Notes: generated by a model not told the origin, from the letters alone. A DNA stretch of 64,000 nucleotides from Dehalococcoidia bacterium (GCA_965219085.1 OZ244720.1:288001-352000), one strand, 5' to 3'. Counted from the first letter of the stretch, positions 9,796 through 64,000 are shown. A program made the numbers and translations.

Positions 9796-10029
9796 CGTCC
9801 GGGGCCGGGTCTGGCGCAAGGGCGGCTCACGGGTACCGGACGGCTGAGATCGCGCCGCGCGACAGCTTCCTGCATGCGCCAGCGCGACGTGCGGAACGAC
9901 GAGAGCGGGCCGGCGTTCCGCACGTCGTGGGGCCTCCCGCAACCTCCCCCAGTGCACAGCCGGAAGAGTTTCCCGTCTTGTCGCCCCCTACTGGCCCGGC
10001 CCGGTGACGGTGACGGTGAGCGAGTTGGC

Positions 10030-10262
10030 GAGCTGTCCCACATCCTCCACGGACTCCTCGCCCCCTTCGCCGGCGACGATCTTCCTGGCGAGCGCCAGCA
10101 TCAGGTCGTCGCCTTCGTCCCCGTAGGCGGCGAGGCCGTCCTCGGGCAGCTCGCCCTCCACCGCCAGCGACGATTGTAGCTTCTTCGCCACGAGCTTGAG
10201 GGCGTCCGCCTGCAGGGTGTTCCGGTAGGCCATGAATACGACCTGCACGGGCTGCGTCTGGC
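10030..10262 (-). pseudogene. ICE-type SNF2/DEAD helicase C-terminal stub (copy 1)
   Basis: GQTQPVQVVFMAYRNTLQADALKLVAKKLQSSLAVEGELPEDGL...DDLMLALARKIV resembles, from memory, the C-terminus of the PFGI-1/ICEclc-class helicase. Confidence 0.65.
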
Positions 10263-61000: not shown

Positions 61001-64000
61001 TCGTCCCTGTTCGTGATGGTGACGGCGACATTCAGGGTGGTGGTGTGGCCGCCGGCGGAGACGCTCAGGGTCACGTCGTATACGTTGTTGCCGCCCGAGT
61101 CCTCCGCGTCCTCGTAGTCCGGCGCCGTCTTGAAGCGGAGCCGCCCGTTCGAGGCGTTGAAGTCGAACTTGTCGCTGTCGCTCCCGACGAGTGGCTGCCA
61201 GGCGATGGTGGCGCTCTCGGGGTCCGCTGCCCGGTACGTCCCGACTTGGAGCGTTCCCTCTTCCTCGATCCTAAGTGCCGCGTCGCCGCTGATGGTGGGC
61301 AGCTCATTGACGGGGTCGACGGTGACGGTGAGCGCGATGCTGCCCGTCTTGCCGTCGCTGTCGCGGGCGCTCACCGTGATGTCGTAGACGTTGTTCCCAC
61401 CGGAGTCGGCCGGGCGCTCGTGGTCGGGGACGTTGGCGAAGGAGAGCCCGCCGCCGGCGGTGATGACGAAGTCGCCCCGGTCGCTTCCCCCGAGGGACCA
61501 CGTGTACGTCAGACTGGGCTTCTGCTCCGGGTCGCTCGCGCTGAAGGTGGCCAGCGTGCCCTCATGGTTCTCGTCCACGGCGAGCGCATTGTTGTTCACG
61601 GTGACGCCGTCAGCCGCAGCGAAGGAGATGTCCGCCGGTTCGTCCACGTCGGTGACGGTGATGGTCACGTCCAGGGTTCCGGTCTGGACTCCACTCTCGC
61701 CGTCTGCGGAAGCTCGCAGGGTGACGTCGTACTCTTCCTGGTCCTCGTAGTTGGGAGGCGCCCTGAACGTGAGCACGCCGCTCGCGCTGAGCCTAAAAGC
61801 GCCGCTGTCCGGACCTCCGAGCGGCAGCCATGTCACCGGTTCGCCCTCGGGGTCGCGCGCTCGGTAGGTGGCGACCGCTCCGGTGCGGTTCTCGGCGAGC
61901 TCGATGCTGTGTTGCCCGGTGATCTCCGGCGGCTCGTCGATGTTCGCGACGGTGATGTCCACGGTGGTGACGATGGAGCCGTCCGTATCAGTCGCCGTCA
62001 CGGTCACCGTGTAGCTGTCCTTCGATTCGTAGTCGTAGGTCACCCCCGCCTTGGTCCATAGTTGACCAGTCGAAGTATCGAGGTTGAATGATTCGCCGTC
62101 CGGGCCGCCGAGGCTGTAACTGTACGTACCGCTGTTTGCCGTGGCCGCGACGGGAAGGCCGATGTTCACGCCAGCGGTCGAGTTCTCGACAAGGCTGCGT
62201 TTCGTCCGGATCGACCGGAGCCTGAATGAGAGGCTGGCCATCGGTGCAGTTGTGAACAGGCCAGTCCCGCGGATGCTCGTGATGTCCCCGCGCGGAGTCG
62301 TGTCAACGTTGGGGGAAAGTGAGAAGTCGTCGCCCTCCTCGGTACCGGCGTCCCAGGGGAAGAGGTGCACCTGGTGCGTACGCAGCCAGTGACCCGAGCC
62401 GTCAAGCAGCGGCAGCCCGGAGACTCCCACGAACCAGTCGTGGCTCGGGTCGATCTTCGTCACAAGCGTGATCCGCGGAAACGCGGTCGTGAACGTGACA
62501 TTGCTCAGCGTTGCCAACTCGACGCGGCTGATATAGCCATCATTTCCTTCAATGAGCGCGAGGGCATTAGGTTGGAGCGTGTTGAGTGCGGCCCGAATTT
62601 CGCCCTCGAGCGCGTCGGTGTTGCCGCGTTCCGCCATGTGCTCCATCCCAGCACTGGCCCTCTCGCCGCTGGCGAGGAAGGTCACCGCGGCGTTGTGGAC
62701 CGCGCCAACGAGCTTTGAGAAGTGCGCACCTCGGGGCCGCCCGGCCCGGTCCGGTACGGCAGCCACATTCCAGCTGGCCTGGAATTGCACATCGTAGCTG
62801 GCGGTTGACGCAAACGGCGCAACAGCATCGGTCGCAGATGGACTGAGCGATCTGTCCTCCTCGGTGCGTGTGACGGTGATCGTGTATGTCCGCACGGCAA
62901 TGCCGTCGGGAGCCGTCACTCTGATCTTGATGACGTTCTCGCCCGCCTCCAGTCCTACCTGAAGGCCATCGGTGTTGGTGTCTGCGTCGACGATCGTGTG
63001 GCCGGCGACGTCGAGGTATGCCAGGGACGCACCGGTCCGGTTGCCGGCTCCGGCGATGGTGATCCGCGTCACCGTATACCCGACCGCCGCCGTATACGAG
63101 TCCTTCATGCGGTCGAACTTCGGCGCCAGCGTTACGCCGCCCAGGGTCAGCGCGCTCAGCGTGGCGTCGGCGGAGACTGCCGTCGTCCCAACCCAGGTAT
63201 CCGACCAGTCCCCCGCGCCAACTGCATTGCGCGCTCGGACCTGTAAGTCGTACTGCGTGCTGTCCGCAAGCCCCCTGACTGTGTACGTCGGGGCGGCGCC
63301 TTGGGCGAATTTGAGGTTCATGTAGTCCCACGCGAAGTAGGTTGTCAGCATCGAGTCGCTGCGGATGTAGCGCAAGTCGTAGGCGGTGATCCGGGCCCCG
63401 CCGTTGTCAGCCGGCGGATCCCAGTTGATCGTGAGCGTCCGGTCTGTCGCCGTGGCCGAGGTGATCACGGGACGCCCAGGCAGGGTCCGCGGTGTCCCCG
63501 ATCTGGTCGCCGACCAGGGGCCGTCGCCGGCGGCATTGACGGCCCTGACCTGTATGTCAAGGGCGACGCCGTTGGAGAGCTCCGACAAGGTGTGTTCGAG
63601 CGCGCCGCCGGTCCAGATGGCCGGTTCGCTGGTCCAGAATGAGTCGGACTGATCGGGAGCGTTGCTGCGGATGGAGCGCAGGTCGTATGCCGTGATCGTC
63701 GCTCCCCCGTCGCTGGCGGGTGCGCTCCAGCGGACGGTGAGCTTCGCGTCGCCGCTGGTCACGGAGTTGATCAGCGGAGCGCCCGCCAGGGTTCGCGGCG
63801 CAGCGGATTGGGGCGGGGACCAGGTCAGTTCGGCGTTCGCGGTGACCGCCCGCACCTGGACGTCGTAAGCGACGCCGTTGATTAGGCCCGTGAGCGTGAC
63901 TTCGAGGCTGCTGGAGGCCGGGAGCCCTTCCCGGACGGTCCAGTGGGCGTCGGCCTTGTCGCTGGCGTCGCTGCGGAGGTAGCGCAGCTTGTACGACGCG
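58096..64000 (-). CDS. Giant secreted modular protein F (5' end beyond the window): FN3, cadherin-like sandwich, Spondin_N, cadherins, Ig-like, conserved C-terminal module
   Basis: Frame stays open to the window edge (YKLRYLRSDASDKADAHWT...); Spondin_N motifs HFSKLVGAVHN and PSHDWFVGV...WDAGTE. Confidence 0.9.
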   Translation of the reverse strand, partial: ASYKLRYLRSDASDKADAHWTVREGLPASSSLEVTLTGLINGVAYDVQVRAVTANAELTWSPPQSAAPRTLAGAPLINSVTSGDAKLTVRWSAPASDGGATITAYDLRSIRSNAPDQSDSFWTSEPAIWTGGALEHTLSELSNGVALDIQVRAVNAAGDGPWSATRSGTPRTLPGRPVITSATATDRTLTINWDPPADNGGARITAYDLRYIRSDSMLTTYFAWDYMNLKFAQGAAPTYTVRGLADSTQYDLQVRARNAVGAGDWSDTWVGTTAVSADATLSALTLGGVTLAPKFDRMKDSYTAAVGYTVTRITIAGAGNRTGASLAYLDVAGHTIVDADTNTDGLQVGLEAGENVIKIRVTAPDGIAVRTYTITVTRTEEDRSLSPSATDAVAPFASTASYDVQFQASWNVAAVPDRAGRPRGAHFSKLVGAVHNAAVTFLASGERASAGMEHMAERGNTDALEGEIRAALNTLQPNALALIEGNDGYISRVELATLSNVTFTTAFPRITLVTKIDPSHDWFVGVSGLPLLDGSGHWLRTHQVHLFPWDAGTEEGDDFSLSPNVDTTPRGDITSIRGTGLFTTAPMASLSFRLRSIRTKRSLVENSTAGVNIGLPVAATANSGTYSYSLGGPDGESFNLDTSTGQLWTKAGVTYDYESKDSYTVTVTATDTDGSIVTTVDITVANIDEPPEITGQHSIELAENRTGAVATYRARDPEGEPVTWLPLGGPDSGAFRLSASGVLTFRAPPNYEDQEEYDVTLRASADGESGVQTGTLDVTITVTDVDEPADISFAAADGVTVNNNALAVDENHEGTLATFSASDPEQKPSLTYTWSLGGSDRGDFVITAGGGLSFANVPDHERPADSGGNNVYDITVSARDSDGKTGSIALTVTVDPVNELPTISGDAALRIEEEGTLQVGTYRAADPESATIAWQPLVGSDSDKFDFNASNGRLRFKTAPDYEDAEDSGGNNVYDVTLSVSAGGHTTTLNVAVTITNRDETGTLAFPSTRPQEEAEYTATLSDADGVVSTTWTWVRSTSRTSGWAAVSGAVDGLTTSAYTPLAGDIGYYLRATAAYEDGHGPNKSREVVSSSTVRAKPVVNIPPAFADTTTTRDIPENAGANAAVGARVTATDTDSGDTLRYEFEPESDLFTIDSANGQIRVKAAGSLDYDDETARSHTVTVKASDSSNAFDTIDVTITVTDVNEPPEAVADSATVDEDDSVIIDVLNNDSDPEDDVSDLTVSAGNARNGQVVVNAPQNPGELYTITYTPRANYHGADSFTYTVRDSGSPSLSGTATVSVNVEGVNDDPGFASATAERSVAESAGEGDNVGAPVTATDIDEDRLTYSLFGTDAGFFDIDPRRGQITVAAGVTFDTATTDTYSVTVEADDANGGRATVEVTITVTAGPAGPPITVGGGGLAGGGGGGPSGPSPSTVDFEWTVKQDIEALDSGHDKPTGMWSDGTTLWLAHNGDGADDAIYAYDLASGERVEEREFALDETNRAPRGIWSDGETLWVADSGQDRLFAHDLASGERLRDRDIVLHRDNPDVRGIWSRDRIMWVLDSRTDALFAYNLTSRELLGEYALDDTNGDPHGIWSDGVGVWVSDHGRKRLLAYRLPALPNEQEPSGEDMSLERVGDEDFRELNGASNNSPRGIWSDGDVMYVADQSDDKVYTYNIPDVIDARLASLTLSAVDIGEFDRNRTDYEGIPHEGMTQTTVDAEALQRRTDIDIDPPDADEETDGHQIDFQDLSEITVVVTSADGSRIKTYRVRFAETGWNSASDPWPHCLRGAVAEGFSLVVYEGGSVEELAACAESRNIVALYVLHEGVYVSYILGAPDFVNREFRELFADGPLIMAPLVVGSNGPPSADPFGAELDGAGPQPWPECLRGDVVEGFSLVVYEGGSVEELEVCAQSRHFTSVYVLADGEWVSYILGAPEFANQPFRELFAEGVPPLTPLVARSEGPPEAN

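Follow-up and report, generated by a model that had tools for sequence, protein, structure and literature searches.

A decaying array of giant surface-protein genes and helicase-gene remnants, probably conjugative-element cargo, in an uncultured Dehalococcoidia

How does a genome come to hold a row of huge surface-protein genes, each followed by a broken 3′ piece of one and the same helicase gene? The question is raised by a 64,000-nucleotide stretch, hereafter the window, from an uncultured Dehalococcoidia (Chloroflexota) whose 3.3 Mb genome is a repeat-rich, single-contig metagenome assembly. The original prediction saw in it an integron- or shufflon-like insertion of 6-11 kb cassettes. We arrive at a different reading, to which we give a probability of about 0.6: the array is the decaying cargo region of a family of conjugative elements (ICEs) of uncultured Dehalococcoidia, and tandem duplication together with homologous recombination built it. 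It would then be a variation on known processes, in which huge surface-protein genes are separated by helicase-gene leftovers of a conjugative element.

Layout and decay of the array

Six units (A-F), with their leaders and the helicase pieces that we call stubs, lie on the minus strand throughout the window, no segment occurs in both orientations, and the layout is regular in five of the six. The repeated layout that had been predicted is real, but the count of six giant genes is not: 'gene E' is a wreck of two fragments in which three IS elements lie.

10306..20849, minus: gene A, two overlapping ORFs (10306-15348, 15027-20849)
21291..21425, minus: leader upstream of A (BLASTN)
22270..28590, minus: gene B, 2106 aa; fn3, PPC, RCC1-like and cadherin-like domains, without the C-terminal tail module
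28400..28834, minus: copy of 22076-22516 (3′ end of B and flank), 79.6% over 442 bp, offset 6324
28934..29056, minus: leader upstream of B (BLASTN)
29057..29457, minus: tail, the DNA 3′ of the helicase stop codon, common to spacers of a second array at 1.86-1.94 Mb
30030..30060, minus: linker, native 3′ flank of the adhesin family, common to C, D and F with copies elsewhere
30061..41394, minus: gene C, 3777 aa, intact ORF; S8, P-domain, fn3, at least six cadherin domains, C-terminal module
41474..41620, minus: leader upstream of C (BLASTN)
43294..49754, minus: gene D, broken into three ORFs; signal peptide at start, about 14 fn3 repeats, then C-terminal module
49932..50075, minus: leader upstream of D (BLASTN)
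50546..57230, minus: 'gene E', two remnants of a repeat protein of a different kind (up to 52105; 54746-55732)
57558..57693, minus: leader upstream of E (BLASTN)
58096..64000, minus: gene F, 3′ 5.9 kb in the window, apparently split beyond it

Gene A encodes S8 protease, P-domain, fn3, Spondin_N, cadherin and GSDH domains and the conserved C-terminal module, which has 81 matches in the genome and so many paralogs. The giant-gene products are predicted to be secreted adhesins or proteases. The gene F side continues about 9.2 kb past the window, where the array head reads, in order, a large serine recombinase (LSR) gene, a full stub (helicase residues 1070-1267, in one frame), tail, leader and gene F.

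Self-BLAST shows A, C, F and the next gene beyond the window, G, to be collinear paralogs at both ends, with 73-86% identity over the 3′ 1.7-3.6 kb, 69-78% at the 5′ ends and 76-90% in the spacers; the earlier statement that the cargo differs between units thus holds mainly for their middles. Co-oriented, collinear paralogs with homologous spacers, as seen in the self-BLAST offsets and the leader alignment, are the pattern of an array formed by unequal crossing-over. The copy at 28400..28834 is the footprint of a 6.3-kb tandem duplication around gene B. The sole recent unit duplication (90-96% identical) joins A to an inverted twin at genome 3092522-3107684, a single 4024-aa ORF with 96%, 88% and 90% identity along the gene, and its bounds are the IS5 element and the gene B flank, not stub or leader.

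BLASTN recovered all five predicted leaders. They are about 135 bp long, with 79-90% pairwise identity over 111-166 bp within the window (E 1e-22 to 2e-49), and the whole genome has eight: these five, one 5.5 kb past the window (upstream of F) and two at 761.7 kb and 3093.4 kb. The leader holds a short palindrome, GTGCCGCTCGGCAC, with 6-bp arms; it is probably promoter-proximal, with a predicted promoter role. The tail contains a hairpin (29408-29445) just after the helicase stop. Leader and tail were not found in any of the 18 other species of the genus among the 19 genomes searched, all of which also have such arrays, and this confinement to one genome points to a lineage-specific amplification. 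As predicted, C, D and F share the linker CCTCT(C/T)CC(T/C)GTC(T/C)GCG(C/T)CTGTC directly after the ...GPPEAN stop. A scan of the BC and EF spacers found no inverted repeat shared by unit borders.

Decay is visible throughout. Compared with the BC spacer, the one around leader E (57437-57966) lacks about 560 bp of stub and tail. The DE and EF spacers have internal deletions (230-560 bp), several genes are broken, and the window holds six transposase-bearing IS elements:

6926..8290, minus: IS4-like transposase gene, lower edge of the island (Pfam DDE_Tnp_1_4, E 2e-57)
8362..9545, minus: IS5-family element (transposase 8523-9497), directly below stub A (Pfam DDE_Tnp_1 and DUF772)
41677..43101, plus: IS256-family element (transposase 41747-43060), between leader C and stub D (Pfam Transposase_mut, E 8e-60)
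51923-54523: split IS5-like element in 'gene E', with a nested IS110 at 52512-53597
56007-57230: IS256-family element in 'gene E'

The IS5-family element at 8362..9545 has an inverted 95.6% copy inside gene G, and the IS256-family element at 41677..43101 a 98% copy at genome 1980563-1981988. The supposed absence of a recombinase from the window is correct for site-specific enzymes, but not for these six transposases, and the LSR gene lies only 6.5 kb past its end. A setting inside a tRNA-Glu island finds no support: ARAGORN detected no tRNA within the window, which also lacks repeated tRNA-Glu fragments, and a tRNA-Glu(ctc) is located outside it, some 0.9 kb ahead of its first base.

The helicase remnants and the recombinase site

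The 'helicase' is a methyltransferase-helicase of 1275 aa (DUF6094 methyltransferase, ResIII, Helicase_C), intact at genome 719395-723222. With that intact protein as tblastn query for the stub coordinates, 3′ pieces were confirmed after all six units, although that of B amounts to only 64 nt:

10039..10264, minus: stub A, residues 1097-1170 (tblastn 10039-10260), 92% at the aa level; BLASTN 93% to the intact gene at genome 719 kb
21505..21599, minus: stub B, two nucleotide fragments of 30 and 34 nt in a patchwork spacer
29458..30029, minus: stub C, residues about 1083-1275 with frame breaks (tblastn match 29485-30004, residues 1087-1267)
43103..43293, minus: stub D and linker, residues 1151-1195 (tblastn 43104-43238); attB deleted
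50103..50545, minus: shortened tail and stub E, stub residues 1175-1267 (tblastn 50276-50545)
57959..58095, minus: stub F and linker, residues 1087-1113 (tblastn 57959-58039); attB-like site

An ORF (50249-52105) reads through stub E. Of an ICE's conjugation and DNA-processing genes, helicase fossils alone are left at the array; helicase middle fragments lie about 20 kb beyond the window. In the sister species G004, co-oriented giant genes begin 334 bp after an uninterrupted helicase gene (1704243-1708141); linker plus stub come next, then another stub and a further four giant genes. With the uninterrupted helicase directly before giant genes, the set of stub, tail, leader and gene looks like ICE cargo, which is in line with the predicted helicase-adjacent cargo site of conjugative-element origin at which units were amplified.

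The LSR at the array head (572 aa, genome 358528-360246) has Resolvase, Recombinase and zinc-ribbon domains (Pfam E 5e-25, 1e-19 and 2e-8). Its crossover is one GA dinucleotide inside the helicase gene: all five helicase 5′ fragments end at the identical base, four stubs start there, and GA is the shared core. The two attP arms are imperfect inverted repeats of each other. An intact LSR element of 26.6 kb (genome 2590188-2616827) sits at the GA core between helicase residues 1-1083 and 1074-1272, so that attL and attR share the 2-bp core and split one target gene, an arrangement that the window units do not have. Its cargo comprises a 4513-aa adhesin gene, which points against the helicase, and a large SF1 helicase-nuclease. 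A 17.2-kb element in G018 uses the same att site and is bounded alike. Among 80 related LSR loci, 11 have a co-oriented helicase 3′ end after the recombinase gene, and a 12th has a reversed helicase 5′ piece. The LSR element targets the helicase gene and can carry adhesin genes; the unit boundaries do not coincide with its crossover. The predicted helicase-adjacent hotspot is supported in so far as the helicase piece holds a real recombination site and the recombinase that uses it is encoded just outside the window.

Unit borders are ragged, with three junction types in six units. Relative to the LSR crossover, gene and stub meet about 18 nt upstream in C and F, at about +50 in A, where uniquely a 42-nt linker precedes helicase sequence from about +50 of the GA core, and inside the stub in D and E. 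Only stub F retains an attB with GA core and both arms; in the attB-like site of stub C the core has changed from GA to GG, and A, B, D and E are without a site.

Divergence by codon position (1/2/3) separates the stubs further. Differences are flat or nearly so between C and E (12/13/18) and between D and C (7/7/7), and these three stubs look as though they had diverged as neutral duplicated fossils would. Stubs A, upF, 1914k and 1924k are, in contrast, third-position biased (A/C 3/4/16; C/1924k 6/8/23; 1914k/1924k 6/6/22; A/twin 2/3/14; live helicases 27/25/59). We attribute this bias to gene conversion with live helicase genes, of which a patch in the twin of A that matches another helicase allele is one clear tract. 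Stubs are 82-90% alike, compared with 75-86% for the last 300 nt of the adjoining genes and 73% for the tail.

A probable history of duplication

The repeats, breakpoints, att sites and codon-position patterns above are observed; the order of events is what we infer. Judging from G004 and the array head, the native layout would have been a methyltransferase-helicase gene, a short intergenic tail, a leader and a giant secreted adhesin/protease gene. A segment that starts in the 3′ end of the helicase gene, about 18 nt upstream of GA, and ends shortly after the adhesin stop would have been duplicated in tandem and then amplified by unequal crossing-over between conserved gene ends, which would leave each unit with a dead helicase 3′ piece, a tail and a leader. 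Later the units would have diverged by 14-26%, undergone partial stub and tail deletions and taken six IS insertions, and several genes would have been broken. Stubs may still recombine homologously with live ICE helicase genes, and this gene conversion would keep some of them 'young'. The LSR module, in one copy at the array head, would have made no unit boundary. Ragged junctions and old duplication with decay, named in the original prediction as the outcome that would speak against it, are largely what is found, and they are evidence for duplication and recombination of mobile-element cargo and not for an integron-like machine.

Several observations nevertheless count against the duplication account. 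The adhesin-linker-helicase junction about 18 nt before GA recurs at other loci and in at least four other species, and its position is the outer edge of the would-be attB left half-site. Stubs at these recurrent junctions group with different helicase lineages in a tree built without support values, and the stubs resemble each other more closely than do the adjoining gene ends or the tail. Two more independent truncations start close to the att site as well, both about 26 nt before GA. A single old junction with passive decay is insufficient; extensive gene conversion or repeated junction formation is needed.

Recombinase-driven and other readings

Serial delivery of units by the LSR, at the GA core of a helicase-derived attB and with the stubs as displaced target ends, would place the stubs beside the core of their target and an LSR module at the array head, as observed, and the adhesin-carrying LSR element fits it too. 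An adhesin-adjacent attB-like site has been used at genome 865.9 kb, where adhesin stop, linker and attB left arm continue, at GA, into the right arm of an attP. In G013 the distance from the end of an adhesin gene to an attP right arm is 177 bp. In five of six type-1 junctions here (the exception being L028) the left arm ends in ACC or GCC before the core, where helicases have ACG; right arms vary. We still consider this reading unlikely. The arm left of GA is attB-like (10/11 positions) rather than attP-like (4/11), which makes the junctions whole attB-like sites and not attL or attR, and recombination of attB with attB is not known for LSRs. LSR integration duplicates no 600 bp of target plus tail, the adhesin orientation in the intact element predicts convergent pairs instead of a head-to-tail array, a complete site survives in one of the six window stubs, and C, D and E have the look of duplicated fossils.

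Guedon et al. (2017, PMC5704250) describe serine-recombinase integrative (mobilizable) elements in the SNF2-type helicase gene of Tn5252-superfamily ICEs of Firmicutes. There, too, a conjugative element has a conserved helicase-related gene that is split by a site-specific serine recombinase element; the phylum is another, and the likeness is one of layout. In the present element the att sites could be placed at a GA core of 2 bp, intact copies occur in two species, and the cargo differs in including the giant adhesin gene and helicase-nuclease. Such an element would account for the att site in the stubs, not for the array itself. The same paper, in its account of ICESt1-type elements, covers tandem accretion of integrative elements and CIMEs at one att site (citing Pavlovic et al. 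2004), which resembles the array in its co-oriented units separated by repeats that include the target-gene 3′ end. Borders in that account are integrase-made att sites, whereas ours consist of deletions or entire attB-like sites; the repeated part here takes in 600 bp of target and tail, and five of six sites are no longer usable. An att site at every border, as in CIME-type accretion, is not seen among the six window stubs. Composite SCC arrays at the rlmH (orfX) 3′ end in staphylococci are moved by the large serine recombinases CcrAB. They share with the present locus LSRs, a conserved gene 3′ end as target and stacked cargo units, but SCC units can be excised and are flanked by short direct repeats derived from the integration site, and no such borders occur here.

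Movement without an enzyme, through stub-stub homologous loop-out into one-unit circles that re-enter at any helicase 3′ end by a single crossover, would account for the conserved linker/stub junction across loci and species, for stubs that are chimeric or 'young' relative to their genes and for adhesin arrays tied to ICE helicases across the genus. Plain gene conversion gives the same patterns, however, and the recent duplication of A uses other borders. Neither a circle nor an empty site showed up in contigs of public runs, though these are short. In the 1906k copy, the right arm and even the 14 nt left of GA agree in helicase lineage, which an intra-stub crossover would not produce. We give this reading a small chance.

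A regular layout and a conserved leader with a palindrome might suggest an integron- or shufflon-like system with its own unseen recombinase acting at leader and stub. Like an integron, the locus is a co-oriented row of variable-content units beside a recombination site; unlike one, it has no IntI and no attC hairpins, and its 6-11 kb units have their own upstream region and paralogous content. No IntI-type recombinase lies by the array, and the scanned BC and EF spacers hold no attC-type repeat per cassette; nor does the window contain the inverted recombination sites, with segments in both orientations, of a shufflon. The only two tyrosine recombinases encoded in the 3.3 Mb genome (PF00589; genome 56759-57292 and 2339071-2339595) are both more than 230 kb away from the window. 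With junctions that are ragged and off the LSR crossover, borders sharing no inverted repeat, and a leader missing from the 18 other array-bearing species, such a system is very improbable. An assembler that created or mis-ordered the repeats is hardly credible, even in a repeat-rich single-contig metagenome assembly where consensus errors might account for the frameshifts of A, D and F (at 46697 and 47665, within or close to the D frame breaks, contigs of other runs carry an extra base). Copies differ by 10-30%, and each has deletions and IS insertions of its own, features that an assembler would not create. Public-run contigs match stretches of spacer and gene exactly (for example 50006-50375 and 54476-54907, although the best-matching run may be the source sample), and G004 has the same layout.

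Multigene surface-protein families diversify by duplication and gene conversion between paralogs. The array is like them in its conserved ends, mosaic middles and many paralogs, and unlike them in that each unit is full-length with its own leader, in place of a single expression site with silent donors. Cadherin and fn3 proteins have been described as enriched in sponge symbionts.

A further proposal, which we consider doubtful, is that the stub may be more than debris and serve as a portable docking handle, combining a complete attB for the adhesin-carrying LSR element with about 0.6 kb of homology to every ICE of the family, so that adhesin genes would be shuttled between chromosomal arrays and conjugative elements. 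If so, they could spread among Dehalococcoidia as single-unit circles or by LSR integration beside adhesin genes. This would explain the recurrent att-edge junction in several species, stubs 'younger' than their genes, and the giant-gene arrays found beside ICE helicases throughout the genus.

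Organization of the giant-gene array

The genome under study (G000) is a single contig of 3.306 Mb with ~68% GC. Positions 1-5700 of the window hold ordinary genes (an LPG-synthase-like membrane protein, an amino-acid ABC transporter), and from ~6.3 kb onward only giant genes, spacers and IS elements are found. The giant genes, labeled A to F, are distributed as follows.

Giant genes of the array (window coordinates)
10306-20849, minus strand: gene A, two overlapping ORFs
22270-28590, minus strand: gene B
30061-41394, minus strand: gene C
43294-49754, minus strand: gene D, three ORFs
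50.2-57.2 kb, minus strand: "gene E", a wreck
from 58096, leaving the window, minus strand: gene F

The original prediction described a shared leader (a ~120-bp element upstream of the genes) and a decayed 3′ piece of one helicase gene after each unit, here called the stub. Five leaders and the helicase pieces were recovered where it had placed them, with BLASTN E values of 1e-12 to 1e-122 except for the pieces of B, after which only two helicase fragments of 30 and 34 nt are left. The linker, a short sequence between the adhesin stop codon and the stub, was confirmed as common to C, D and F. Past the window, F reaches a sixth leader, followed by the tail (the DNA after the helicase stop codon) and a full stub, the head stub; beyond it the array holds a recombinase gene, then another giant gene (G), which a copy of IS5 interrupts, and finally a giant gene in inverted orientation. 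No tRNA-Glu fragment marking an island border was present within the window, and an Rfam search of the whole window at the gathering threshold gave 0 matches. A solitary 388-bp piece at 6335-6722, outside the array and beside the IS4-like element, matches an interior stretch of gene C (39225-39612) at 95% identity.

Pfam domains in the giant genes comprise subtilase S8, P-domain, fn3, cadherin, Spondin_N, GSDH and cadherin-like. A signal peptide can be recognized in each of A, C and D, and a conserved C-terminal module of ~330 aa, its last part without a Pfam name, is shared by A, C, D and F. The predicted products are secreted proteins in which a protease head is combined with numerous adhesion-type repeats, a repeat region resembling a propeller and a shared C-terminal tail; their domain content suggests a role in attachment to a host or matrix. 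The C-terminal module has 81 matches in the 3.3-Mb genome, with arrays at 0.30-0.38, 0.59-0.72, 0.76-0.87 and 1.86-1.94 Mb, and 5-74 matches per genome in the 18 other species of the genus; it is present in 18/18 of these, whereas a sample of 12 genomes from the remaining families of the class had it in 1. Giant surface proteins on this scale are a very large investment.

The leader has a mean column identity of 72%, a core palindrome GTGCCGCTCGGCAC, and lies 80-440 bp upstream of the start codons; we take it as putative promoter or 5′ UTR DNA inherited with each unit. A structured RNA was rejected, since RNAalifold gave -6.8 kcal/mol with a compensatory change in 1 of 19 pairs, on an alignment that included a stray 10-nt seventh row. 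Scanning 41300-43400 for promoters and terminators returned 0 and 0, a weakly informative result at 68% GC. The leader core occurs in 8 copies in G000 and in none of the 18 other genomes; both tail and leader are confined to G000 among the 19 genomes of the genus.

A large serine recombinase targeting the helicase gene

The intact helicase gene (genome 719395-723222, 1275 aa) encodes a DUF6094 methyltransferase fused to a ResIII/Helicase_C helicase, and pieces of it occur at ~30 places in G000. Five of five 5′ fragments (783.7, 1861.1, 1866.8, 2616.8 and 3111.3 kb) end at the same base, at which four 3′ stubs start (358.6, 1914.6, 2582.7 and 2590.2 kb). Aligned junctions define attB as ...TGGT(T/A)CGA(G/A)ACG GA (C/T)TAC..., attL as the helicase 5′ part, GA, then GGTCTCGGTTTTCCAATCC..., and attR as ...GCCAAACCGGAGCC, GA, then the helicase 3′ part. 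The crossover dinucleotide GA comprises the sole letters common to the aligned sites; the two attP arms are imperfect inverted repeats of each other. Sites of large serine recombinases (LSRs) usually have this anatomy. An LSR gene with Resolvase, Recombinase and Zn_ribbon_recom domains reads into attR, and two copies are present.

LSR gene copies (genome coordinates)
358528-360246: copy 1, 6.5 kb past the window end
2590074-2591780: copy 2, 91% identical to copy 1, one internal TGA

Copy 2 resides in an intact 26.6-kb element (2590188-2616827; loci L011 and L012), inserted outside the window within a methyltransferase-helicase gene. Its cargo includes a 1900-aa DUF4011/AAA_11/AAA_12/MTES_1575 protein, a defense-like helicase-nuclease, a 913-aa ORF, and an adhesin gene (333 + 4513 aa, C-terminus ...KSEGPHEAN) oriented against the helicase. 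The helicase fossils contain the target of an adhesin-carrying recombinase element. Copy 1, at the head of the array, has no attL partner nearby, matching-strand attP right arms being found only at 1.86, 1.87, 2.62 and 3.11 Mb, and has therefore probably been rearranged.

LSR matches (E <= 1e-50) at 74-91% identity were found in 6 of the 18 other species, and G018 carries a 17.2-kb element with other cargo at the same helicase-gene site. Among 80 related loci in public MAGs, titled Tepidiformaceae or Dehalococcoidia, the helicase 3′ end lies directly downstream in 11 and a reversed 5′ piece in 1 more. In two otherwise intact helicase genes (L032 in G018, L039 in G001) CA replaces GA at the crossover dinucleotide, which might render them immune to the element. 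A study of Firmicutes describes serine-recombinase elements that split an SNF2-type helicase gene of ICEs (PMC5704250); the Chloroflexota system, for which we now have a base-pair map of attB, attP and the GA core, would be a parallel, both parasitizing an ICE helicase gene.

Unit borders and the origin of the layout

The original prediction proposed an integron-like mechanism that accumulates 6-11 kb cassettes by repeated insertion or amplification. This interpretation was not upheld: the unit borders were not made by the recombinase, and homologous recombination followed by decay fits the array better. LSR crossovers at the borders were rejected on the basis of varied junctions, attB-like left arms, and a GA core with both arms in F alone (stub C has GG). 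In C, F and the loci at 805, 866, 1906 and 1924 kb, the linker comes after the adhesin stop codon and helicase sequence then sets in ~18 nt before GA; left of GA the sequence is attB-like, not attP-like. In D the linker is kept and the attB region deleted; in A and its twin, an inverted copy of unit A elsewhere in the genome, the helicase begins ~50 nt after GA behind a distinct 42-nt linker; in D and E it begins inside the stub, at residues 1151 and 1175. The linker belongs to the adhesin family itself, as its native flank on the 3′ side, and also follows adhesin genes without a helicase piece (2616711, 604673 type). At 865.9 kb, the sequence passes from linker and attB left arm through GA into an attP right arm, an arrangement indicating that one site of this type has been used by the recombinase.

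The ancestral order can be read from two places. In G004, another species of the genus, the helicase gene is uninterrupted and co-oriented giant genes begin 334 bp beyond it; the second of these is succeeded by linker and stub, another stub, and four further giant genes. At the head of the window array, the stub beside the recombinase is one open stretch (residues 1070-1267, 81% aa identity) and leads through tail and leader into a giant gene, as in the inner units. Together these point to a native order of helicase, tail, leader and adhesin, and the inner units would be duplicates of a stretch that starts just ahead of GA and runs to where the adhesin gene ends. The second array, at 1.86-1.94 Mb, shows stub and tail as in the window and a different upstream region.

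Several features point to duplication and decay. Units are collinear at both ends (67-86% identity), the repetition of 22076-22516 at 28400-28834 is the footprint of a 6.3-kb tandem duplication, and relative to the BC spacer ~230 bp have been lost from DE and ~560 bp from EF. Six IS elements occupy the window: one IS4-like, one IS5, two of the IS256 family and, within what is left of "gene E", an IS110-family element (transposase 52512-53597) nested in, and splitting, an IS5-like one (51923-54523). The only recent unit copy joins window 8444-22208 to genome 3092522-3107684, inverted and across the chromosome; its borders are an IS5 and a point just before the stop codon of B, neither stub nor leader. 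Its ends are 90-96% identical and its middle ~88% or less, which makes this segmental duplication a mosaic. The twin retains an uninterrupted ORF of 4024 aa, whereas gene A is frameshifted. In contigs from different public runs an additional G appears at window 46697 and 47665, within or close to the breaks in the gene D reading frame, so these breaks may be strain differences or consensus errors rather than true pseudogenization. Eight public runs with this sequence were listed, 0 on record as RNA; over 41300-61299 the contigs of 4 runs measured 200-700 bp, and the sides of the listed joints were at most 30 letters long (all but one <30); joints with such short sides often come from repeats or other organisms and speak neither for nor against excision, circles or copy-number change.

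Judged from sequence, the array is best read as decaying cargo of putative ICE origin that homologous recombination has amplified. It reveals no new cassette machine; the ingredients are all of known kinds, and their combination is new. No literature on adhesin arrays separated by ICE helicase remnants was found, which is not proof of absence. This reading would tie the very large adhesin/protease gene set of these uncultured Dehalococcoidia to conjugative elements; ordinary recombination would have remodeled it, and fossil ICE sequence would mark where it came from.

Stub divergence and the recurrent junction

To follow the fate of the stubs, codon positions were assigned from the live gene and differences counted for 23 pairs. 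Live helicases differ mainly at third positions, e.g. 27/25/59 at positions 1/2/3. Flat counts were obtained for C vs E (12/13/18), D vs C (7/7/7) and two G015 stubs (11/10/8), as expected of dead DNA that was copied and then drifted. Third-position bias appeared in A vs C (3/4/16), C vs the stub at 1924k (6/8/23), 1914k vs 1924k (6/6/22), C vs the head stub (12/19/42) and A vs its twin (2/3/14). Intermediate patterns or few differences characterized L046 vs 1924k (13/21/26, p 0.11), L044 vs L043 (1/3/6) and D vs 1924k (4/3/9). The stubs resemble one another more closely (82-90% identity) than do the final 300 nt of the genes beside them (75-86%) or the tail (73%). A FastTree stub tree, built from short, partly overlapping pieces and read without support values, serves as a hint only.

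The unique junction common to A and the twin shows that both stubs started out identical. The twin stub contains a run of changes identical to a helicase allele found in G013, a signature of gene conversion from a live helicase. The other biased pairs may likewise reflect gene conversion, or re-entry of units by homologous crossover. The helicase fossils are thus best read as still exchanging sequence with live, putatively ICE, genes. Applied to fossil gene pieces, the codon-position test offers an inexpensive means of distinguishing debris left by duplication from copies that were captured or converted recently.

The recurrent linker-helicase junction ~18 nt before GA coincides with the outer edge of the would-be attB left half-site and occurs in at least five species: G000, G013 (L046), G004 (L044), G015 (L047, L048) and G012 (L049). 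The five loci outside G000 came from 30 fetched loci; in the remaining 25, the helicase runs through the site in 19, is cut at about -68 in one and about -26 in two, gave no hit in two and only a distal match in one. Other starts lie ~26 nt before GA, at 2582.7 kb in G000 and behind an identical non-helicase flank in G015 and G012. Such clustering beside the att site may reflect chance, surviving functional landing sites or a site-directed process, and it is the basis for a less likely reading of the stub as a portable docking handle. The G015 and G012 loci with the identical flank, L050 (G015:C4:1770329-1771227) and L051 (G012:C1:1937010-1937909), suggest a shared, possibly transferred, element border beside the att site.
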